Source: a virus (Duplodnaviria > Heunggongvirae > Uroviricota > Caudoviricetes). Taken from it: a stretch of DNA of 38,086 bases. The notes beneath the pieces were generated by a model, which did no database searches, was not told the origin of the DNA, and saw only the letters and a program-made list of their open reading frames with translations. Each line of letters starts with the position of its first letter. Position 1 is the first letter of the stretch. The position numbers and the translations under genes are program-made. Shown one piece after another: positions 18,950-38,086 of this stretch. The stretch lies in the IMG/VR virus record IMGVR_UViG_2684622669_000016, positions 1-38,086 of that record; one strand, written 5' to 3'.

Positions 18950-19600
18950 TCAGCGGCTGTCATTGCGCAGTCTGCGCTCCAGCTGCTGTTTGTCTTTTTT
19001 CACGCCACAGCGGGGATCGAGCTGTAACGCATGGTTGAGATGATTAAGGGCAGACGCCGGATTGCTTTCACTCAGGACCGCGCCAATCGCTTTATGCAGA
19101 CGCGCCCGTGACTGGTCCGGCATATCCAGACCGTCTGTCAGCTCCAGCGTCTGCAGCAACAGATCGGCATCAAAGCCGGTGGTGGCAAGCATTGCGCTCT
19201 GCGCGGCGTCTGCCATTTCCTCTGCCAGCACGGTCTGCACGTTGCGGTTACCCAGCGGCATCACCCAGCCATGACGCAGGGCATGACGCCCGATCTCCAG
19301 CGCTCCGGCATAATCTCCGGCATCAATGCGCCACAGCATCACGTACATCAGCACGTCATCCTGTTGAGCGCCTCCGGCAGCCAGGACACCCTCTGCCCAG
19401 GCGGCGTACTTCGGCAGCAGCTCCACCTTGATTTCCGCTTTTTTGACCGTGGACTGAACGCCCTTGAGACGGCGGCGGTCTTCCGCCAGTTGCAGCAGCA
19501 TCAGGTCATAGCCCGATGCGTGGCGAACACTGCCGCCCTCGCGGGCGGCCTGTTCAGCCTGAACGCGCAGGCGATGCTGCCGTGCGGGACTCAGGCTCAT
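18950..19600 (-). CDS. M: terminase small (endonuclease) subunit M
   Basis: 216 aa; position between L and N as in P2. Confidence 0.85.
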   Translation of the reverse strand: MSLSPARQHRLRVQAEQAAREGGSVRHASGYDLMLLQLAEDRRRLKGVQSTVKKAEIKVELLPKYAAWAEGVLAAGGAQQDDVLMYVMLWRIDAGDYAGALEIGRHALRHGWVMPLGNRNVQTVLAEEMADAAQSAMLATTGFDADLLLQTLELTDGLDMPDQSRARLHKAIGAVLSESNPASALNHLNHALQLDPRCGVKKDKQQLERRLRNDSR

Positions 19601-21654: not shown

Positions 21655-23421
21655 ATGAACACCACACTGACCCCCGCAGATCTCGATCCCCGTAGGCAGG
21701 CCATGCTGCTGTACTTTCAGGGATACCGCGTAGCCCGCATTGCTGAAATGCTGGGCGAGAAAGTTGCAACCGTTCACAGCTGGAAGAAACGCGACAAGTG
21801 GGGTGACTATGGGCCGCTGGATCAGATGCAGCTCACCACCGCCGCCCGCTACTGCCAGCTCATTATGAAGGAGCACAAAGAAGGGAAAGATTTCAAAGAG
21901 ATTGACCTGCTGGCGCGCCAGTCGGAGCGCCATGCACGGATCGGCAAGTTTAACAATGGCGGCAACGAAGCCGACTTAAACCCTAACGTCGCCAACCGCA
22001 ACAAAGGCCCGCGTCGTCAGCCGGAAAAGAACGTTTTCACCGATGAACAGATTGAGAAGCTGGAAGAAATCTTCCATTCCTCCATGTTCAACTACCAGCG
22101 CCACTGGTGGGAAGCCGGAAAAACCAACCGCATCCGCAACCTGCTGAAGTCACGCCAGATCGGCGCGACCTTTTACTTTGCCCGTGAAGCCCTGATTGAC
22201 GCCCTGCTTACTGGACGTAACCAGATTTTCCTTTCTGCCAGTAAGGCACAGGCTCACGTCTTTAAGCAGTACATCATCGACTTCGCCAAAGAAGTGGAGG
22301 TGGAGCTGAAAGGCGATCCGATGGTGCTTCCCAACGGGGCCACACTGTATTTCCTCGGCACCAATGCCCGCACGGCCCAGAGTTACCACGGCAACCTTTA
22401 TCTGGATGAATATTTCTGGATACCGAAATTCCAGGAGCTGCGCAAAGTGGCTTCCGGTATGGCTATTCACAAGAAATGGCGACAGACCTATTTTTCCACG
22501 CCATCCAGCCTGACCCACAGTGCTTATCCGTTCTGGTCCGGTGCTCTGTTCAACCGTGGGCGCAACAAAGCCGACAAGGTGGACATCGACCTGTCCCACA
22601 GCAATCTGGCTCCCGGCCTGCTGTGTGCAGACGGGCAATACCGCCAGATAGTCACCGTGGAAGATGCGGTGCGCGGCGGCTGTAACCTGTTCGACCTTGA
22701 CCAGTTACGTATGGAATACAGCCCGGACGAATACCAGAACCTGCTGATGTGTGAGTTCGTGGACGATCTCGCGTCCGTGTTCCCGCTCAGCGAGCTGCAG
22801 GCGTGCATGGTGGACAGCTGGGAAGTCTGGACCGACTTTCATGCACTGGCGCTGCGCCCGTTTGGCTGGCGCGAAGTGTGGATCGGTTATGACCCGGCAA
22901 AAGGTACGCAGAACGGCGACAGTGCCGGATGCGTGGTGGTGGCACCGCCAGCCGTGCCGGGTGGTAAGTTCCGCATTCTTGAGCGTCACCAGTGGCGCGG
23001 GATGGACTTCCGCGCCCAGGCTGACGCCATCAAAAAACTGACCGAGCAGTACAACGTGACCTACATCGGCATCGACTCGACAGGTGTCGGCCACGGGGTT
23101 TACGAGAACGTGAAAGCGTTTTTTCCAGCCGTCCGGGAGTTTGTCTACAACCCCAACGTTAAAAACGCCCTGGTACTCAAGGCCTACGACATTATCAGTC
23201 ACCGTCGTCTGGAGTTTGACGCCGGACACACCGACATAGCGCAGTCATTTATGGCAATCCGTCGTGCCACCACCGCCAGCGGCAACCGCCCGACCTATGA
23301 AGCCAGCCGCAGCGAAGAAGCCAGCCATGCCGATCTGGCCTGGGCAACAATGCACGCACTGTTTAACGAACCGCTGCAGGGCGAGTCCGCCAATACCAGC
23401 AATATTGTGGAGATTTTTTGA
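21655..23421 (+). CDS. P: terminase large (ATPase) subunit P
   Basis: 588 aa; size and position as P2 gpP; transcribed divergently from O. Confidence 0.9.
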   Translation: MNTTLTPADLDPRRQAMLLYFQGYRVARIAEMLGEKVATVHSWKKRDKWGDYGPLDQMQLTTAARYCQLIMKEHKEGKDFKEIDLLARQSERHARIGKFNNGGNEADLNPNVANRNKGPRRQPEKNVFTDEQIEKLEEIFHSSMFNYQRHWWEAGKTNRIRNLLKSRQIGATFYFAREALIDALLTGRNQIFLSASKAQAHVFKQYIIDFAKEVEVELKGDPMVLPNGATLYFLGTNARTAQSYHGNLYLDEYFWIPKFQELRKVASGMAIHKKWRQTYFSTPSSLTHSAYPFWSGALFNRGRNKADKVDIDLSHSNLAPGLLCADGQYRQIVTVEDAVRGGCNLFDLDQLRMEYSPDEYQNLLMCEFVDDLASVFPLSELQACMVDSWEVWTDFHALALRPFGWREVWIGYDPAKGTQNGDSAGCVVVAPPAVPGGKFRILERHQWRGMDFRAQADAIKKLTEQYNVTYIGIDSTGVGHGVYENVKAFFPAVREFVYNPNVKNALVLKAYDIISHRRLEFDAGHTDIAQSFMAIRRATTASGNRPTYEASRSEEASHADLAWATMHALFNEPLQGESANTSNIVEIF

Positions 23422-24449
23422 TGGGAAAGAGTAAGAAGAACCGCGCTGCGTCGACGAAACAGATCCAGCATAAAAGCCAGACTTCAGCTGAAGCATTCAG
23501 CTTCGGTGATCCCGTTCCTGTTCTGGACCGCCGCGAACTGCTGGACTATGTGGAATGCGTACAGATGGATCGTTGGTATGAGCCGCCTGTGAGTTTCGAC
23601 GGACTGGCGCGAACCTTCCGCGCCGCCGTGCATCACAGCTCACCGATTGCAGTGAAGTGCAACATTCTGACCAGCACCTACATCCCTCACCCGCTGCTCA
23701 GCCAGCAGGCTTTTTCGCGCTTTGTGCAGGACTATCTGGTTTTTGGTAACGCCTACCTGGAGAAACGCACGAACCGCTTCGGTGAAGTTATCGCCCTTGA
23801 GCCTGCTCTGGCAAAATACACCCGACGCGGGTTAGACCTGGATACCTACTGGTTTGTGCAATACGGTATGACAACCCAGCCGTATCAGTTCACGAAAGGC
23901 AGCATTTTTCATCTGATGGAACCGGACATCAACCAGGAGATCTACGGCCTGCCCGGTTATCTTTCTGCCATTCCGTCAGCCCTGCTCAACGAGTCCGCCA
24001 CGCTGTTCCGCCGTAAGTATTACATCAACGGCAGCCATGCAGGCTTCATCATGTACATGACCGATGCCGCGCAGAACCAGGAGGACGTGAACAACCTCCG
24101 CAATGCGATGAAAAGCGCCAAAGGCCCTGGCAACTTCCGCAACCTGTTTATGTACTCGCCTAACGGCAAAAAGGACGGGCTTCAGATTATTCCTCTGTCA
24201 GAAGTCGCGGCAAAGGATGAATTTTTGAATATCAAGAACGTGAGCCGGGATGACATGATGGCAGCACACCGAGTGCCGCCGCAAATGATGGGGATAATGC
24301 CGAATAATGTTGGGGGATTTGGGGATGTGGAGAAGGCTAGTAAGGTTTTTATGCGTAATGAATTGATACCGCTACAAAACAGAATAGAAGAACTCAATAA
24401 ATGGCTCAAAGATGACATAATAAAATTCATGCCATACAGTTTCATATAA
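23418..24449 (+). CDS. Q: portal protein Q
   Basis: 343 aa; size and position as P2 gpQ; start overlaps the P stop. Confidence 0.9.
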   Translation: MMGKSKKNRAASTKQIQHKSQTSAEAFSFGDPVPVLDRRELLDYVECVQMDRWYEPPVSFDGLARTFRAAVHHSSPIAVKCNILTSTYIPHPLLSQQAFSRFVQDYLVFGNAYLEKRTNRFGEVIALEPALAKYTRRGLDLDTYWFVQYGMTTQPYQFTKGSIFHLMEPDINQEIYGLPGYLSAIPSALLNESATLFRRKYYINGSHAGFIMYMTDAAQNQEDVNNLRNAMKSAKGPGNFRNLFMYSPNGKKDGLQIIPLSEVAAKDEFLNIKNVSRDDMMAAHRVPPQMMGIMPNNVGGFGDVEKASKVFMRNELIPLQNRIEELNKWLKDDIIKFMPYSFI

Positions 24450-24454
24450 AACTA

Positions 24455-24475
24455 AGGGCCGAATACCTCGGCCCT
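24455..24475. terminator. hairpin between convergent Q and the 557-aa cargo gene
   Basis: Stem agggccga (24455-24462) / tcggccct (24468-24475), 5-nt loop; T-rich on the minus-strand 3' side. Confidence 0.4.
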
Positions 24476-24480
24476 CTACA

Positions 24481-26154
24481 TTAAGATTTATGGCTAAAGA
24501 GTATACCTGTAACAGAACGTTGATAGGCATCAAGCTTCTCTTGCCTCTGCTTAAATTTAGATTTGATATCACTAATACTCGGAATACCTATTACTCCAAG
24601 GCCTGCACTTAACGCCGCTAAAGTAGTATTGCCAGTCAGCGCTCCAGCAATTGCTATAGCACCATTTGCGATACATGGTAGGACATCCAGTCCGTAAATT
24701 CTCAATTTCTCTTTTTGGGCTTTTGCAAGAATCCTTTGATGTTCAATAAAAGCCCGGTCTACATTATCAATTACTTTTTGCGTTGTCCTCGAAAAGCTCT
24801 CTGCCGAAGAATTGATTAAAGAGTCAACACCATTTGATAAGATGGATCTTACATCCTCCATCAATTTGTTACGTCTCAACTCAATTATTTTATTGACCGG
24901 TACATTTCCTAACCATGAAAAACCATCTTGCATACCAGCAGATAACGCATGAACCATATGCAAATTTTTTAGTTCAATATCATTGACATCAAAATTAAGA
25001 GATTCGTACTCAATAAGCCAAGTATAATAGAGCCAAGATGTGTCTGCATTTATATATGGAGTACTACCAAGTTCTTGTGCATTACATTTTGCTGAATAGG
25101 CTTGCGGCATTCTTCCAATGCAGGAAAGGAAAACCTCCATTCCAGCATGATCACCAACAACATTACGTGATATTCTTTTTTTATCAGATAGTAGTTTTTC
25201 TAATTGAGTTTTTGGATTTAGCCCCCATGCTGTATCAAAAATAAGTCTATCTGCTCTCTTAATATTTTTAAGAACAGCATCAATATCATTCATCGAATAA
25301 CTAAAATCTTGAAATTCATCGTAGCTTTCGAACCGTCGATCATAGAGATATTGCGCATGAGTCAGAGCATAAGGCTCACAAAAACTCATCAAATTTTTTT
25401 TGCTCTCAGTTTCAAAATCTCTTCTATCCGGCAAAATTAATACTATTGCTGGCTCTATATCTTCAAGCGCTACTTCTTTATATGTCATACATGTTAGGAC
25501 ATGCTTCAGAAGTATCCTTGTAAACTCAGCCTTATCTGACTTTTCATAGAGACGACCGACTCTTAATATAGGACATGGAAGTGAAATAGTATCAACATAC
25601 AACCCTGCAATAGAGACAGCATTCTCATCAAATGCAGGAAATAAGTCACCAGAAAAATTAGCTTTAAACTGAGAACCATCCTGCAAATGTATTACACCAA
25701 TATCGGATGTTACCTGCCAAAACTCTATTACCTGATTATATAACTCAGGAAAAATATCTTCTATTTGCTTAACATATTCTTCTTGTTGAGAAAAAAAACT
25801 TGATGCTTTATGTGGCGTTGCATTAGTTTTTTTCATCAGATAAAACAACTCGCCAAAATTACTAAAAAGAATATTAAAGTAAGAACTTTGCAAGTCCTGA
25901 ATAGAGTATTTGTTTTTTATATCTTCTCTTTCTAAAAAGTGATTAACCGCTGCTCCCATAGCCCTTATTCTGCCATCAACAGTAGAAGGGTCAACTTTAC
26001 CATCCTGTCGCAGCCTTATTCTTTTAAAACTTTCAATAAAACCTTCTACAAGATGATGAGCTATTTTTAGTTTTCCCGCTTCCAGTTGTTGCTTAATGAG
26101 AAAAACACGCTCAGTTAAATCGTCTACATATTCCTCATCTTGATATTTTTCCAT
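24481..26154 (-). CDS. 557-aa protein of unknown function, AT-rich cargo gene (candidate anti-phage / exclusion gene)
   Basis: Long uninterrupted ORF, visibly AT-rich against the GC-rich structural genes; no recognisable motif by eye; C-terminal Gly/Ala-rich hydrophobic stretch. Confidence 0.8.
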   Translation of the reverse strand: MEKYQDEEYVDDLTERVFLIKQQLEAGKLKIAHHLVEGFIESFKRIRLRQDGKVDPSTVDGRIRAMGAAVNHFLEREDIKNKYSIQDLQSSYFNILFSNFGELFYLMKKTNATPHKASSFFSQQEEYVKQIEDIFPELYNQVIEFWQVTSDIGVIHLQDGSQFKANFSGDLFPAFDENAVSIAGLYVDTISLPCPILRVGRLYEKSDKAEFTRILLKHVLTCMTYKEVALEDIEPAIVLILPDRRDFETESKKNLMSFCEPYALTHAQYLYDRRFESYDEFQDFSYSMNDIDAVLKNIKRADRLIFDTAWGLNPKTQLEKLLSDKKRISRNVVGDHAGMEVFLSCIGRMPQAYSAKCNAQELGSTPYINADTSWLYYTWLIEYESLNFDVNDIELKNLHMVHALSAGMQDGFSWLGNVPVNKIIELRRNKLMEDVRSILSNGVDSLINSSAESFSRTTQKVIDNVDRAFIEHQRILAKAQKEKLRIYGLDVLPCIANGAIAIAGALTGNTTLAALSAGLGVIGIPSISDIKSKFKQRQEKLDAYQRSVTGILFSHKS

Positions 26155-26255
26155 AAACGCTCCATTAAAATATTTAATAATGCATATAAGAATAGTTAAT
26201 AATATTTACAGTAACTATATCACATTAGATCCAGATTGTTACACTGTTGCGCGCG

Positions 26256-26274
26256 CTCGTATCCCCGCCACGCC
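26256..26274 (-). other. candidate cos cohesive-end site
   Basis: Minus strand reads GGCGTGGCGGGGATACGAG, about 15/19 identical to the 186 cohesive end as recalled (GGCGTGGCGGGGAAAGCAT). Confidence 0.5.
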
Positions 26275-26544
26275 TGCCCGCTTTATGTAGTGGTTTTCAT
26301 GCACCTGCATGCTCTACGCAAAAGCCCGCCAGTTCTGGTGGGCCTTAGCAATAACGATCCTCAAACGATCATGCAATCTCATGCAGTATAGGCATGCACA
26401 ACAACTTACCTTAAGAAAAAACATCTGATATGCCCAACTGTTTCGTCTCTTTTCCAGTAGCTTGCTATGGCTTATCTTTAATGCAACTGTAATCGTGTAT
26501 GAAGATACAATCCCTACCAATCATAAAAATGAGGAACACAAAGA

Positions 26545-27285
26545 ATGACTGTGCACAAGCTCTCTGGTGCGTTTTTCCACGATATGCAGGTTGAGTGGCC
26601 CTGCCCTAACTGCAATCAGAAAACCCTACAGATCATTAAAGAAAGTTTCGTCTCGTATGACACACATGATACCCGAAAATTCCGCAGTGAAGATTGGTTT
26701 GAACCAGAAATGGATTCATCTATTTTCAGTTGCATGGCCCGCTGTTCAAGAATGCAATGTGGTGAAGTTGTGGCCTGTACTGGTAAGAGTGGATGGGAAC
26801 AAGGTTGGGATGAAGAAAGAAATGATATTGAGTACTATCAATGGCACAGACCTTTCACCTTTTACCCATCACTGCATCCTTTCGAAATACCTGAAAAATG
26901 CCCAGAAGAAATTACCGAACCGCTTGAAGCCTCATTTTCCATTTTCCTAATACAGCCTGGCGCAGCAGCAAACCTAATTCGAATTTCAGTTGAAAGAATG
27001 CTAACCGCTATGGATGTAGCTGAACGTAATGATAATGGCAAACGCATAACTCTACACCACCGTTTAGGGATGCTACCTGAATTATACGGATCGTTTTCAA
27101 GACCTCTTATGGCAATTAAATTTTTAGGAAATGCCGGAAGCCATACCTACGATGAAGTAAAAGTCAAAGACATTGAGGATGCTTTTGAGATTATGGAGTA
27201 CGTCGTCAATGACTTGTTCTCCGGTCGCAAAGAATCTGTCGAAGTATTGACGAAACGATTAAGTGAAAAATTCAAAGAAAACTGA
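26545..27285 (+). CDS. 246-aa protein: N-terminal Cys-rich zinc-ribbon-like region plus C-terminal DUF4145/HEPN-like domain (candidate abortive-infection effector)
   Basis: Strong SD (tgagga) before the ATG; CPNC…C…CSRMQC cysteine cluster; C-terminal …RITLHHRLG…IKFLGNAGSHTYDE… resembles the DUF4145 signature as recalled; AT-rich. Confidence 0.8.
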   Translation: MTVHKLSGAFFHDMQVEWPCPNCNQKTLQIIKESFVSYDTHDTRKFRSEDWFEPEMDSSIFSCMARCSRMQCGEVVACTGKSGWEQGWDEERNDIEYYQWHRPFTFYPSLHPFEIPEKCPEEITEPLEASFSIFLIQPGAAANLIRISVERMLTAMDVAERNDNGKRITLHHRLGMLPELYGSFSRPLMAIKFLGNAGSHTYDEVKVKDIEDAFEIMEYVVNDLFSGRKESVEVLTKRLSEKFKEN

Positions 27286-27295
27286 TCAAGATACA

Positions 27296-27343
27296 GGTGG
27301 TTCACTTTTACGGGCAAAATAACCGCTTTACTTTTGAACCACC
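27296..27343. terminator. inverted repeat between the convergent 246-aa gene and the dinI-like gene (possible bidirectional terminator)
   Basis: 9-bp arms ggtggttca / tgaaccacc around a 30-nt loop. Confidence 0.3.
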
Positions 27344-27413: not shown

Positions 27414-27647
27414 CTAATGCAGCCAGCTGTCGTCTTCCCACACCTTCTGCATAATTTTCATCACTTGTTTTCTTTCTTCGTCCAGTTGCAGTCCGGTCAG
27501 TTCCACACCGTTAGAGCTACCTTTGCGGATACGAATTACCGTTTTTGGATACAGGGGGCGCAGATTGCGGTAAAGCTCGGATTCAAGGGCATCCAGGATA
27601 GACTGGCTAATCTTCTGCTCTTTATCGATCATTATTTCAATGCGCAT
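27414..27647 (-). CDS. DinI-family protein (Tum C-terminal-domain-like)
   Basis: 77 aa from the ATG at 27647 (MRIEIMIDKEQKISQSILDALESELYRNL…WEDDSWL); matches the DinI fold pattern. Confidence 0.8.
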   Translation of the reverse strand: MRIEIMIDKEQKISQSILDALESELYRNLRPLYPKTVIRIRKGSSNGVELTGLQLDEERKQVMKIMQKVWEDDSWLH

Positions 27648-27657
27648 AAAAGTCACC

Positions 27658-27846
27658 TCAACTGATGACATCCATTGAGCGGTTGTATTCGTGGGTTCTG
27701 ATTTTTGCCATGAGTTCATCTGTTAGTTCAGAAACCCACTGCAAAGCCAGCCCCTTCTCTTCATCACTACACTCACTAGCCGCTACAAGCTTAAGAAAAA
27801 AATCAATGCGCTGGAGCTTCAAAGACTCCAAAAAATAGTCCTGCAT
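27658..27846 (-). CDS. 62-aa protein, first gene of the LexA-controlled operon (possible Tum N-terminal part)
   Basis: Strong SD (ggagg) before the ATG at 27846; LexA box and promoter directly upstream. Confidence 0.6.
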   Translation of the reverse strand: MQDYFLESLKLQRIDFFLKLVAASECSDEEKGLALQWVSELTDELMAKIRTHEYNRSMDVIS

Positions 27847-27887
27847 TTTTCCTCCTATGACACCACAAGCAATACTGTATGCATAAC

Positions 27888-27907
27888 CACTGTTTATATT
27901 TACAGTA
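27888..27907 (-). promoter_or_regulatory. LexA (SOS) box overlapping the promoter of the tum/dinI-like operon
   Basis: caCTGTttatatttACAGta, a perfect CTGT-N8-ACAG; promoter-like TTTACA and an AT-rich -10 just upstream on the minus strand. Confidence 0.7.
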
Positions 27908-34208: not shown

Positions 34209-35147
34209 ATGCCAACTCAAAAAATCACATTTCGCCATATTGAAGATAGTCTGAAAGCTATGGTCATGCAGAATCGTGGAGGGCAAAAAGTCATTGAGAG
34301 GATACTCAAGGCCTATGGTTTCAAATCACGCCAAGCCTTCTGTAAGCATCTTGGTATTTCACAAAGCACAATGGCTAATAGATATGCACGCGATACCTTC
34401 CCTGCTGATTGGGTTGTTATATGTTCAATGGAAACTGGCGCATCCCTAGAATGGCTGGCCTTTGGTTCTAACAATGCAGAAGAAAGTTCCCCCCCTTATG
34501 TGGAACAACATGATGAAACAGTCCCACATGAGGGGTTTAACAGCAACGCTCATCAATCATCCTTTAAGCGCCGCATTGAGAATCACATTGAGCTTACTAA
34601 CGGAGGAAAAGCCGCGATAGAGAGGATTGTTAATGCTTACGGGTTTAAAACCCGCCAAGCCTTAGCCGACCACCTTGGTATTTCAAAAAGCACATTAGCC
34701 ACACGATACATGCGAGATTCTTTCCCTGCGGATTGGGTGATTAAATGCGCATTAGAAACCAAAGCGGATCTCGCCTGGCTAGTTACAGGAATCGAAACAC
34801 CAAATAGTTCACAAGAAGAAAACACTGTAATTTTAAATAAGTTCAATTTGGTCAATGGCGTGCTTGTCGAGTCAGGTTTTTTATCCATGGATCGGTGTCT
34901 ACTTCCGAAGCAAGAAACTAGCAGCTTGATGTTTGTAAGCAATGGAGAAAAACATGTCATATGTGATAAAGAATTTCACCTAATTAGAGATGGAAAATGG
35001 TTAGTAGGAATTGACAATGAGTTATCTTTAAAAGAGTTAACTCGTTTACCTAAGAACAAAATTCTTGTTTCTGGTGGGAGTAAGGATTTTGAGTGTTCCA
35101 TTGAGGATATTCAAATTATAGCCAGCATTATCTTAACAATACAATAA
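34209..35147 (+). CDS. cI: CI-type immunity repressor with tandemly duplicated N-terminal DNA-binding domain
   Basis: 312 aa; two 186-CI-like units (…ERILKAYGFKSRQAFCKHLGISQSTMANRYARDTFPADWVVICSMETGASLEWL… and …ERIVNAYGFKTRQALADHLGISKSTLATRYMRDSFPADWVIKCALETKADLAWL…) followed by a C-terminal domain. Confidence 0.85.
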   Translation: MPTQKITFRHIEDSLKAMVMQNRGGQKVIERILKAYGFKSRQAFCKHLGISQSTMANRYARDTFPADWVVICSMETGASLEWLAFGSNNAEESSPPYVEQHDETVPHEGFNSNAHQSSFKRRIENHIELTNGGKAAIERIVNAYGFKTRQALADHLGISKSTLATRYMRDSFPADWVIKCALETKADLAWLVTGIETPNSSQEENTVILNKFNLVNGVLVESGFLSMDRCLLPKQETSSLMFVSNGEKHVICDKEFHLIRDGKWLVGIDNELSLKELTRLPKNKILVSGGSKDFECSIEDIQIIASIILTIQ

Positions 35148-35190: not shown

Positions 35191-36960
35191 ATGAATCATC
35201 ATCTTTCAAAGATTTCTATAAAAAACTTTAGATCTTGCAAAGATATTGATATCAATTTTTCTTCATTCACGCCTTTAATCGGTTACAACAATGCTGGTAA
35301 GTCAACGATTTTAAATGCTATTGAATGGCTTTTTAAGAAAAAACTTTTGTCCTCTGATGATTATACTAATCCAGATAACCCTATAGAAGTTATAGGTACA
35401 GTTAAGGGTATTACTGAAGATATTTTGTCAGCTTTAACAGAAGAAAACAGAACTAGAATTTCACCCTACATTATTGACGGGGTATTGATATTTAAGCGTC
35501 AACAGCCTGTTGGTGCTCAAAGTGCAAAAGACGTCAGATTATTAATTAAAAACCCAGAAAATAACGAATTCAGGACATCACCAACGGGTATTGAGAATGC
35601 GATAAAAGCTTTATTTCCAGACCCAATACGTATAGGTGCAATGGAAAATGCAGCGGATGATTCTTCAAAATCAAAAACAGGAACTACAATAGGTAAGTTG
35701 CTGGCAGAATTGAGTTGCAAAATAGAAGAGAAGCACACTCAAAGGATACTAAGCCATTTAAATGCCGTTAATAGAAGAATGACTGCAACCGGTAATAAAC
35801 GAATATCGGACCTCAATGATATTGATGATTCAATAAGTAGTAAAGTTGCTGATTTCTTCCCTGGGATAAGTTTAAAACTACACTTCGAACTCCCTGACTT
35901 CAAGGATATATTTAAATCAGGGACTGTAAAAGTATATGAAGATTCATTTCCCGGCATTGCTCGTGACTGTTCTTCTTATGGTCATGGCACACAGCGTTCG
36001 ATTCAGATGGCTCTAATAAGACATTTAGCTGATATAACCAACGGTGATGATATTAAAACAACTACTCTACTGTTAATAGATGAACCTGAGTTATATCTTC
36101 ACCCATTTGCTATCGAACAAATTAGAGAATCTCTAAAAACACTATCTCATCATGGATATCAAATAATTTTCTCTACCCATTCATCTCAAATGATTACCTC
36201 TGACTTAGCAAAAGACACTGTGTTAATCAGAAAAAACAGTCAGCGTGGCACTCATTGCAGATTAACATTAAAAGAAGCAGTCAATAAAGTAATCGAACAA
36301 CGACCAGCACAAGCAACCCATTTATTTTCATTAACACAGTCTTCAAAAGTTTTGTTTGCTAACAATGTAATACTAACAGAAGGTAAAACAGAGACTACTC
36401 TGCTCCCATTTATTTTTAACAAAGTTAAAAATAAAACATTAGGTCAGATGCAAATAGCACTAATTGAAACAGGGTCCGTTGAAAGTATATCTAAAACGAT
36501 GCAAATTCTAAATTCAATGGATATACCTACAAAAGCAATTGTTGATTTAGATTTTGCGTTCCGCGGTGCAATAAGGAACAACTTCTTAGAACATAATGAC
36601 GAGGATATTTTACGACTAAAAGAAATCTTGAGAAGTATGCATGCTAATGGAGAATGCACTCTCGATGGATCCGGTTTGCCTACAAAGGGTAGTAACACTA
36701 CCGCAGCTGAAGCATTTGCTATTATGTCTCAAAAGCCCGGCGCCAGAGAATTTTTGTCATCATTAGCCGCAAAACTGAGAAATGCAAATATTTGGATTTG
36801 GCTAAATGGTTCGATAGAAAACCATTTGGGTCTTACAGAAAAAAATGAATCAGTATGGGCTGATTTCAAAACAAAAGCAGATACACAACCTCTTTCAGAT
36901 ATCTGTGCAGATTTCGAAAGTATTGAGGCTTTAGTCGACTGGATTACCCCTGACGTATGA
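35191..36960 (+). CDS. old: OLD-family ATPase/Toprim nuclease (P2 Old homologue)
   Basis: 589 aa; Walker A GYNNAGKST; FRSCK, IDEPELYLHP and Toprim VILTEGKTE motifs; collinear with P2 Old as recalled; AT-rich; GGAGG SD. Confidence 0.85.
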   Translation: MNHHLSKISIKNFRSCKDIDINFSSFTPLIGYNNAGKSTILNAIEWLFKKKLLSSDDYTNPDNPIEVIGTVKGITEDILSALTEENRTRISPYIIDGVLIFKRQQPVGAQSAKDVRLLIKNPENNEFRTSPTGIENAIKALFPDPIRIGAMENAADDSSKSKTGTTIGKLLAELSCKIEEKHTQRILSHLNAVNRRMTATGNKRISDLNDIDDSISSKVADFFPGISLKLHFELPDFKDIFKSGTVKVYEDSFPGIARDCSSYGHGTQRSIQMALIRHLADITNGDDIKTTTLLLIDEPELYLHPFAIEQIRESLKTLSHHGYQIIFSTHSSQMITSDLAKDTVLIRKNSQRGTHCRLTLKEAVNKVIEQRPAQATHLFSLTQSSKVLFANNVILTEGKTETTLLPFIFNKVKNKTLGQMQIALIETGSVESISKTMQILNSMDIPTKAIVDLDFAFRGAIRNNFLEHNDEDILRLKEILRSMHANGECTLDGSGLPTKGSNTTAAEAFAIMSQKPGAREFLSSLAAKLRNANIWIWLNGSIENHLGLTEKNESVWADFKTKADTQPLSDICADFESIEALVDWITPDV

Positions 36961-37033: not shown

Positions 37034-38086
37034 ATGGCAGTACGAAAACTCACCACAGGAAAATGGCTTTGCGAATGTTACCCCGCCGGACGAAGTGGGC
37101 GTCGTGTGCGTAAACAATTCGCCACCAAAGGCGAAGCACTGGCTTTTGAGCGTCACACGATGGAAGAAACCGAAGCAAAGCCCTGGCTGGGTGAATCAGT
37201 GGATCGTCGAACACTGAAAGACGTGGTTGAGCTATGGTTCAAACTACATGGTAAATCTCTGACAGCTGGGCAGCATGTCTATGACAAATTGCTGTTGATG
37301 GTTGACGCTCTGGGCAATCCTCTTGCAACCGATCTCACCTCTAAAATGTTTGCCCACTATCGAGATAAACGACTGACAGGCGAGATCTACTTCAGCGAGA
37401 AATGGAAGAAAGGAGCAAGCCCGGTCACCATTAACCTGGAGCAAAGCTATCTAAGTAGTGTTTTTAGCGAACTATCCCGTCTGGGCGAATGGTCGTATCC
37501 GAACCCACTGGAGAACATGCGAAAATTCACCATCGCAGAAAAAGAGATGGCATGGCTTACCCATGAGCAGATTGTTGAATTGCTGGCTGATTGCAAACGT
37601 CAGGACCCAATTCTGGCACTGGTAGTCAAGATATGCTTAAGCACAGGCGCACGCTGGCGAGAAGCAATAAATCTTACCCGTTCACAGGTGACTAAATACC
37701 GAATTACCTTTGTAAGAACGAAGGGGAAGAAAAACAGAAGCATCCCTATCAGTAAAGAGCTTTACGAAGAGATCATGGCGCTTGATGGTTTCAATTTCTT
37801 CACAGACTGCTATTTTCAATTTTTATCCGTGATGGAAAAAACGTCTATCGTGCTCCCTCGCGGTCAACTGACACACGTTCTGCGCCATACGTTTGCGGCG
37901 CATTTCATGATGTCGGGTGGAAATATCCTTGCTTTGCAAAAAATCCTCGGACATCACGATATAAAAATGACGATGCGTTACGCACATCTGGCACCGGATC
38001 ATCTGGAAACGGCGCTCCGTTTCAATCCTCTGGCAACGCTGCCAAGTGGCGACAAAGTGGCGGCAGCGGTTGGCATTACCCCGTAA
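37034..38086 (+). CDS. int: P2-type tyrosine integrase
   Basis: 350 aa; N-terminus and catalytic region (…LSTGARWREA…VLRHTFAAHFMMSGGNILALQKILGHHDIKMTMRYAHL…) resemble P2 Int. Confidence 0.9.
   Translation: MAVRKLTTGKWLCECYPAGRSGRRVRKQFATKGEALAFERHTMEETEAKPWLGESVDRRTLKDVVELWFKLHGKSLTAGQHVYDKLLLMVDALGNPLATDLTSKMFAHYRDKRLTGEIYFSEKWKKGASPVTINLEQSYLSSVFSELSRLGEWSYPNPLENMRKFTIAEKEMAWLTHEQIVELLADCKRQDPILALVVKICLSTGARWREAINLTRSQVTKYRITFVRTKGKKNRSIPISKELYEEIMALDGFNFFTDCYFQFLSVMEKTSIVLPRGQLTHVLRHTFAAHFMMSGGNILALQKILGHHDIKMTMRYAHLAPDHLETALRFNPLATLPSGDKVAAAVGITP
38047..38068. repeat. right prophage attachment core (attR): tggcgacaaagtggcggcagcg
   Basis: 21/22 identical direct repeat of 2835-2856; lies within the last codons of int. 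Confidence 0.6.

Follow-up and report, generated by a model that had tools for sequence, protein, structure and literature searches.

Introduction

The closest described relatives of the packaging site considered here are the cos sites of phages P2 and 186, which have physically defined 19-nt 5′ cohesive ends, and that of the satellite P4, in which a 55-bp cos core is described as the only homology with P2 (Ziermann & Calendar 1990, as cited in PMC5694545 and PMC9594776). A P2 lysogen deprived of cos gives no phage progeny, and cosmids provided with cos are packaged (PMC9942202). The surroundings of cos are also known as a place of gene turnover. Foreign genes are picked up at the position between cosL and the Q homologue (PMC5694545, citing Dodd & Egan 1996 and Nakayama 1999). 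In Escherichia coli, Rousset et al. 2022 counted 1,650 gene arrangements in the gpA–gpQ interval, "adjacent to the cos site", which they described as a hotspot; DUF4145 arrangements are already present in their Table S5A. The same authors speculated that cohesive ends promote the exchange. The hotspot was confirmed by Vassallo et al. 2022 and by a 2026 NAR study. Here we analyze a cos-like site in a viral DNA sequence of 38,086 nt (IMG/VR record IMGVR_UViG_2684622669_000016, positions 1 to 38,086; the window in the following text), lying between a gene for a 557-aa protein and a gene for a 246-aa protein. The comparisons indicate that it is very probably the cos packaging site of a Fels-2-type P2-family (Peduoviridae) prophage inserted beside rybB in a host closely related to E. 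coli. The finding is correct, but the arrangement is already known in its parts: the cos sites, the 55-bp core shared with P4, the insertions between cosL and the portal gene and the gpA–gpQ defence hotspot have all been described.

The Window Carries a P2-Family cos Sequence

The reverse complement of positions 26256–26274 is the 19-mer GGCGTGGCGGGGATACGAG. It agrees in 15 of 19 positions with the cohesive end of 186 (GGCGTGGCGGGGAAAGCAT, as annotated in NC_001317), which confirms the likeness that the original prediction had given, and in 14 of 19 positions with the cohesive ends of both P2 (GGCGAGGCGGGGAAAGCAC, as annotated in NC_001895) and P4. Like the other P2-family cos sites, it begins with GGCG(A/T)GGCGGGGA. 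An identical 19-mer forms nt 1–19 of SEN8, labelled "putative cos site" by the depositors of a record that stops exactly at the equivalent of window position 26275, and it is also present in Fels-2, in Yersinia phage MLG42 and in CP019275, a circular element of 37.4 kb. On the basis of this identity, the segment 26256–26274 (minus strand) was annotated as cosN with a 19-nt cohesive-end sequence.

The homology was not limited to the cohesive end. The 55-bp P2-family cos core occupies 26249–26303 on the minus strand and reads TGCAT...AAAACC...AAAGCGGGCA, followed by the 19-mer and CGCGCGC. This segment was identical to Fels-2 and CP019275 in all 55 positions and to SEN8 in 54, and it matched 186, P4 and P2 in 44, 43 and 42 of the 55 positions, respectively; as a yardstick, P2 and 186 agree with each other in 48 of 55. 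Alignment to the circularised cos regions of P2, 186, SEN8, Fels-2 and P4 extended the homology far past the 19 nt, by about 125 bp toward gene A. The proposal that the site serves DNA packaging is therefore supported by an alignment with P2 and 186 that covers the entire 55-bp core and the adjoining A-side sequence, and the window holds no second cos.

Because the ends of P2 and 186 are annotated, the nicks could be predicted between 26275 and 26274 on the minus strand and between 26255 and 26256 on the plus strand, which would leave 19-nt 5′ overhangs. Both predicted nicks fall 1 nt 3′ of a GCGSGC hexamer, each on its own strand (after GCGGGC-A and after GCGCGC-G; 26249–26255 and 26275–26281). 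The same two-fold symmetry of GCGSGC around the nicks was read from the alignments of P2, 186 and P4.

Packaging Genes and Gene Order

The element that carries the site encodes both cognate terminase subunits, as expected for a P2-family cos. The homologue of the small terminase gpM, expected to be the cos-recognition subunit, lies at 18950–19600 on the minus strand (Pfam Phage_term_smal PF05944, 1.4e-40), and the homologue of the large terminase gpP, the enzyme expected to cut cosN, at 21655–23421 on the plus strand (Terminase_5, Terminase_6N and Terminase_6C). The gpQ homologue, the portal protein, is encoded directly after it (23418–24449, plus strand; Pfam Phage_portal).

The genes are arranged as P, Q, the 557-aa gene, cos, the 246-aa gene, dinI and A, and the position of cos in this order matches that in P2, 186 and SEN8. 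The strand starting with GGCG reads toward Q, the orientation seen at the left ends of P2 and 186, and A, a LexA box and dinI are on the other side of cos, as at the right end of 186. This orientation supports the predicted virion termini, with the 557-aa gene at the left end and the 246-aa gene together with the dinI module at the right one. The distance from the Q stop codon (24449) to the 19-mer (26256) was 1,806 bp, in agreement with the spacing of about 1.8 kb noted before, and the two open reading frames (ORFs) flanking the site are of 557 and 246 aa, as described. On the side opposite to Q, dinI is separated from the 19-mer by 1,139 bp.

A Conserved Block of 151 bp Surrounds the Cut

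A similarity search of annotated phage genomes gave 85 records matching the central ~155 bp of the region, representing P2-like phages of Klebsiella, Yersinia, Salmonella, Escherichia, Erwinia and Aeromonas. The boundaries of the conserved segment were established in 80 of at least 120 IMG/VR contigs with an exact 29-mer around the cut; none of these 80 loci was a satellite. Identity to the window in the related loci was 0.65–1.0 for approximately 26247–26401 and 0.1–0.4 outside. Base-level inspection, with offsets counted from the first G of the overhang, placed one edge at GTGCATG (offset −125, 26399) and the other at the last C of GCGCGC (offset +25, 26249), and one base beyond each edge the sequence was random. 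The high-scoring segment pairs in BLAST most commonly started at 26249 (44 loci), then at 26250 and 26247, and most commonly ended at 26399 (28 loci) or 26403 (22 loci). The full conserved cos block, as defined from 75–80 related loci, thus comprises 151 bp on the minus strand (26249–26399), bounded by the distal GTGCATG and the final C of GCGCGC. Near-total conservation within 26249–26399, a fall to chance level one base outside and unrelated flanks argue for purifying selection acting on exactly this block. It has been suggested that the sequence around the 55-bp core improves transduction (PMC9594776), and a conserved signal of 151 bp fits that suggestion.

The intergenic region of 390 bp was originally described as AT-rich. 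It proved to be composite: the GC content is 24% in the portal-side flank (26155–26246), 53.5% in the cos block (26247–26401) and 36% in the A-side flank (26402–26544). By analogy with lambda, an IHF-consensus site was looked for, but the block contained none at up to one mismatch, and the number of such sites in the whole window was at chance level. Neither a tRNA nor an Rfam family matched the cos region, the sole Rfam match in the window being RybB.

GCAT Motifs and an Inverted Repeat Within the Block

Four GCAT motifs on the minus strand are kept at constant offsets. The proximal one (26299–26302, offset −28) lies inside TGCATGAAAACC, and the three others form a distal cluster at 26371–26397 (26371–26374, 26381–26384 and 26394–26397; offsets −100, −110 and −123). 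The same four offsets were found in 186, P4, Fels-2 and SEN8, with P2 having −122 for −123. All four were also present in P4-like satellites of Enterobacter, Tatumella, Citrobacter, Kluyvera and Photorhabdus, and a sixth satellite, at a P4-identical locus, had the three distal motifs without that at −28. A Serratia P2-like prophage with another variant of the 19-mer retained the same offsets. The fixed arrangement spans at least eight genera and reaches well past the published 55-bp core. We found no published description of fixed-offset GCAT motifs in the literature; their use as a cos feature, which the window displays, was derived in the present analysis and is not a published criterion. 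The density of GCAT/ATGC in the block reached 7 per 127 nt against the window mean of 1.2, and only 3 of 3,796 tiles attained 7, all of them at the cos site. Since the satellites share only cos with their helpers, the GCAT repeats appear to be the best candidates for the recognition elements of the small terminase gpM. No biochemical mapping of recognition elements of the P2 type was found in the literature consulted.

The block also contains a GC-rich inverted repeat, GCCCACCAG..CTGGCGGGC, followed by UUUUG (26318–26345, minus strand; RNA folding energy −18 kcal/mol, z = −3.0). A repeat of the CGCCAG..CTGGCG type occupies the same place in 186, P4 and most satellites. As P2 lacks it and one satellite has only a degenerate copy, its role as a universal cos element was rejected. 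The repeat is more likely a putative terminator of transcripts arriving from the dinI/A side; in relatives that lack A-side cargo, transcription leaving dinI meets no terminator before it.

Two Accessory-Gene Slots Flank cos

The distances on both sides of the block were measured in loci with the identical cos. Between cos and Q (n = 55), they ranged from 180 to 3,531 bp with a median of 1,695 bp; six loci had less than 300 bp, as P2 and 186 do, and 40 had at least 1 kb. Between cos and dinI (n = 55), they ranged from 205 to 3,211 bp with a median of 472 bp, 21 loci having less than 300 bp, 21 from 300 to 1,000 bp and 13 at least 1 kb. Inserts were present on both sides in 22 of the 35 loci that could be measured on both. 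As the cos–Q distance is at least 1 kb in the majority of the loci, the 1.8 kb of the window is the typical state for this clade. The spacing pointed out in the original prediction is hence real, but the oddity it implied is not, such insertions being the majority state in the clade and already present in the literature.

The modules in the slots were highly variable. Clustering of 55 loci for each side gave 45 module types on the portal side and 21 on the A side, with "empty" counted as a type. The portal-side slot is thus approximately twice as diverse, and it was empty in 6 of 55 loci, against 21 of 55 for the A side. Thirty-two module combinations were seen in 35 loci; one type from either side was paired with different types on the other, and the two slots assort independently. 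Among the loci with the identical cos, homology to the 557-aa module of the window was present in 1 of 80 and homology to the 246-aa module in none of the 80, which marks the genes on both sides of cos as true cargo. We conclude that the segments ~24450–26248 and 26400–27342 are independent accessory-gene slots of the known gpA–gpQ hotspot.

Individual relatives illustrate the exchange. In Fels-2, cos lies between genes of 565 and 243 aa, neither related to the cargo of the window, with Q beyond the former and dinI beyond the latter. SEN8 shares the DUF4145 gene on the A side and has a different pair of genes toward Q; in E. coli mip270_04, a DUF262 gene is followed by cos and an identical DUF4145 gene. 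In E. coli PE15 and in CP019275, the 557-aa gene and cos are followed directly by dinI. Both window modules together were found in none of 5,426 complete E. coli genomes, a result of little weight given that the host flank of the window is only ~90.5% identical to E. coli.

Alternative Explanations

Several observations weigh against the assignment of the site as the packaging site of the prophage. Of the last six positions of the 19-mer, four do not agree with P2 and 186. A literature search for the variant ending ...ATACGAG led only to the announcement of SEN8, in which annotation was the basis for assigning cos (PMC5427200), and the deposited genomes that end at cos (SEN8, Cartapus and Midge) provided no mapped-end evidence for this variant. 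It was present in none of six P4-like satellites (psu-containing loci in other genera), the overhangs of which end with ...AAAGCAC, ...AGAGCAT or ...ATAGCAT within the same cos architecture as in the window. The case for terminase binding to the GCAT motifs is one of conservation. The consensus promoter scan made no call for the 246-aa gene. Finally, the window ends inside the integrase gene, which weakens the case for a complete and inducible prophage.

The last point leads to the alternative that survives best, although we regard it as improbable: the site could be a genuine P2-family cos by descent, retained as a remnant in a prophage that has become defective and has lost excision, replication and packaging. 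In addition to the integrase gene being cut by the end of the window, this view draws on the occurrence of the module of the 557-aa gene and cos in the degraded E. coli prophage PE15, with truncated portal and tail genes, and in CP019275, where several genes are frameshifted. In the window, however, the genes for both terminase subunits, portal, scaffold, capsid, head-completion and tail proteins, A, cII and cI are full-length ORFs with strong family matches, and the core, identical to Fels-2 in 55 of 55 positions, has undergone no decay. The prophage is presumably still capable of packaging.

It is far less probable that the functional packaging site is located elsewhere, for instance adjoining Q, and that the element described here is a duplicated or decoy copy carried with the cargo. 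The idea derives from P2 and 186, in which cos is only ~165–185 bp from the portal gene. The invariant 13-mer GGCGWGGCGGGGA, for which 0.07 matches were expected by chance, had a single match in the 38-kb window with one mismatch tolerated, so no second cos-like sequence was found there, next to Q or elsewhere, and the gap between Q and the 557-aa gene is only 31 bp. Moreover, of 55 loci with this cos, 40 have their single copy of it separated from Q by 1 kb or more, and Fels-2 and SEN8 have the same layout.

The weakest alternative, a chance GC-rich similarity in a block that would serve only for regulation or termination of transcription between divergent genes, can point to the terminator-like hairpin in the block and to the 13-mer, any match to which appeared in 7 of 100 shuffles, but it seems effectively refuted by the extended alignment, namely the identity that spans 55 bp in P2, 186 and P4 and 151 bp in the Fels-2-type phages, together with the fixed-offset motifs common to the satellites, and by P2, which has a functional cos yet no hairpin.

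Cargo Genes on Both Sides of cos

The portal-side cargo gene (24481–26154, minus strand, 35% GC) encodes 557 aa and is read in the direction from cos to Q. Its product had no match in Pfam, PHROG, NCBIfam or the PDB sequences. A weak, partial match to the PADLOC profile of DitB was noticed (5.9e-10; residues 195–452 against positions 95–344 of 361). Aditi, reportedly described by Millman and colleagues in 2022, is said to be a two-gene system composed of DitA and DitB. The assignment of the 557-aa protein to Aditi was rejected, as the DitB match is partial and weak and the gene stands alone with no DitA-like partner between Q and cos; Olokun was rejected likewise, on a partial weak match with no partner gene. 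The family comprises 212 full-length homologues, all annotated as hypothetical, in Enterobacterales, Aeromonas, Aquitalea and others. Stand-alone distant relatives were found beside Gabija in a Tn7-like element and in a retron/PAAR-type island, and in a Serratia prophage another distant relative occupies the same cos–Q slot, at a distance of 63 bp from cos. The AlphaFold (AF2) model, built from an alignment of 33 sequences, was mostly helical (pLDDT 85, pTM 0.76) and had no fold match; residues ~488–530 include two marginally hydrophobic Gly/Ala-rich helices. From the genomic context, a putative role in defence is plausible. The family deserves attention as an unnamed one with a confident predicted structure, no recognisable fold and a recurrent presence in defence-type contexts.

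A candidate sigma-70 promoter of the 557-aa gene was indicated by a consensus scan at 26214–26242 (minus strand), with a −35 element GTAACA (26242–26237), a 17-nt spacer and a TG-extended −10 element TATAGT ending at 26214. It belongs to the cargo module, 7 bp beyond the edge of the cos block. The scan found fewer sites in the window than in shuffled sequences, so the site is regarded as a candidate. At the other end of the gene, the 31-bp gap separating it from the converging Q holds a GC-rich hairpin (24454–24476), a likely terminator according to a minus-strand terminator scan.

The A-side cargo gene (26545–27285, plus strand) encodes a 246-aa protein with a Cys-rich N-terminus and DUF4145 (Pfam, 5e-13; phrog_1305), which also matched PADLOC PD-T7-4 weakly (2e-5). 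The same gene adjoins cos in SEN8, and an identical one was found in E. coli mip270_04. The best −10-like hexamer found by eye, TACAAT at 26506–26511, lacks a convincing −35 element and is not claimed as a promoter. Of the two divergent cargo promoters assumed to lie in the intergenic region, the scan thus gave a candidate for the 557-aa gene and made no call for the 246-aa gene. Both cargo genes are transcribed away from cos.

The Prophage and Its Host

An SOS-type module reading toward cos occupies 27414–27905 on the minus strand (phrog_698, DinI and LexA pattern matches). It consists of a LexA-box-like sequence CTGTTTATATTTACAG (27890–27905), a 62-aa ORF (27658–27846) and dinI (maximal ORF 27414–27719, identified by its DinI match). 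The box is the only perfect match to the LexA pattern in the window, with 0.44 matches expected by chance, and the argument is based on its position, not on the count. The module suggests that the prophage is SOS-inducible. A LexA box upstream of the 62-aa ORF and dinI parallels the SOS-controlled p95–tum operon of 186 (p95/LexA/tum).

The RybB small RNA gene (2701–2779; Rfam, 106 bits) immediately adjoins the tail-gene end of the prophage, which is probably integrated at rybB. The host flank with ybjL, ybjM and grxA (within 1–2800) shared only ~90.5% identity with each of the 5,420 E. coli genomes that matched it. The host is therefore probably an Escherichia other than E. coli, or a close relative.

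Several additional observations were made. A full-length homologue of the P2 Old exclusion nuclease is encoded at 35191–36960 on the plus strand (PADLOC Old, 778 bits; AAA_15 and OLD-like TOPRIM), between the CI repressor (34209–35147) and the tyrosine integrase (37034–38086). In P2, old adjoins cosR, so the homologue in the window occupies a different hotspot. The CI-repressor ORF (34209–35147, plus strand) encodes 312 aa with two Phage_CI_repr helix-turn-helix stretches and seems longer than expected for a CI of the 186 type, which may reflect a mis-set start, a fusion or a duplication. CP019275.1 (37,446 bp, circular), deposited as an E. coli "plasmid" record, is a P2-like phage genome with the same cos and 557-aa gene. 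Its annotation marks several genes as frameshifted, among them the 557-aa gene, gene A and the methylase. The record may represent a prophage that has been excised or persists as an episome; alternatively, the frameshifts may come from errors in the assembly.

Discussion

If the site is the cos of the prophage, a packaging scheme can be proposed from the comparisons. After induction, the terminase composed of gpM (18950–19600) and gpP (21655–23421) would recognize the 151-bp signal at 26249–26399, with the four GCAT motifs (−28, −100, −110 and −123) as the probable contacts of the small subunit. The large subunit would then nick both strands at a distance of 19 nt, in each case 1 nt 3′ of GCGSGC, producing the 5′ overhangs GGCGTGGCGGGGATACGAG. 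The virion DNA is predicted to start with the 19-mer, the promoter, the 557-aa gene, Q and P, and to carry at its other end A, followed by the LexA-box/dinI module, then the 246-aa gene and, last, the GCAT repeats. Such a scheme would fix the virion ends and the gene order for this genome and place the two accessory genes at the extreme ends of the packaged DNA. A usable by-product is the signal itself: its base-precise 151 bp with four GCAT motifs at fixed offsets constitute a testable model of small-terminase recognition and a design rule for P2/P4 cosmids.

The block might be more than a neighbour of the hotspot, being the cause and the anchor of the cargo turnover, an idea that we consider possible but rather doubtful. 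In at least 75 loci, the recombination breakpoints fall, with single-base precision, on the outermost of the putative terminase motifs (the distal GTGCATG and the GCGCGC after the cut). Breakpoints at the block edges and two independent slots fit recombination at cos that is end-initiated or associated with the terminase, as speculated by Rousset et al. If that were true, the 151 bp would represent the minimal shared homology that lets either half of the region be swapped alone.

Among the known systems, the locus is most similar to the Salmonella phages of the Fels-2/SEN8/RE-2010 type (Felsduovirus), with which it shares the 19-mer, the 151-bp block and the layout of P, Q, cargo, cos, cargo, dinI and A. 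The portal-side cargo differs, being a 332-aa hypothetical protein and an HNH endonuclease in SEN8 and the unrelated 565-aa protein in Fels-2, and so does the host, a relative of Escherichia here and Salmonella there.

P2 and 186 have in common with the window the GGCG(A/T)GGCGGGGA start, GCGCGC after the 19-mer, the upstream TGCAT–AAAACC and AAAG(C/T)GGGC elements, the GCAT offsets (−122 in P2 for −123) and the orientation relative to Q and A. Positions 14–19 of the overhang read TACGAG in the window and AAGCAC/AAGCAT in P2/186. Unlike the window, P2 and 186 have no gene in the ~165–185 bp between cos and the portal gene, and P2 is devoid of the GC-rich inverted repeat. The P2 old–tin transcript, which starts ~150 bp from cosR and reads away from it, is a precedent for cargo directed away from cos.

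P4 and the P4-like satellites share with the window the 55-bp core and the distal GCAT triplet, the sole homology of helper and satellite. In the P4-type satellites, an accessory-gene hotspot directly adjoins cos as well, but its neighbours there are the satellite genes psu and gop.

The cos of lambda resembles the site in having a nicking site with partial two-fold symmetry and small-terminase repeats on one side only. There is no sequence similarity, the overhang of lambda has 12 nt in contrast to 19 nt here, and the block described here has no IHF-consensus site. The lambda terminase stays on the cosB-bearing end. By this analogy, the GCAT-bearing end with A, dinI and the 246-aa gene might be packaged first, although we do not claim it.

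With regard to the gpA–gpQ hotspot, the publications consulted present it as a single interval, whereas in the loci analyzed here it is composed of two slots parted by a 151-bp block, which is a modest refinement of the known picture.

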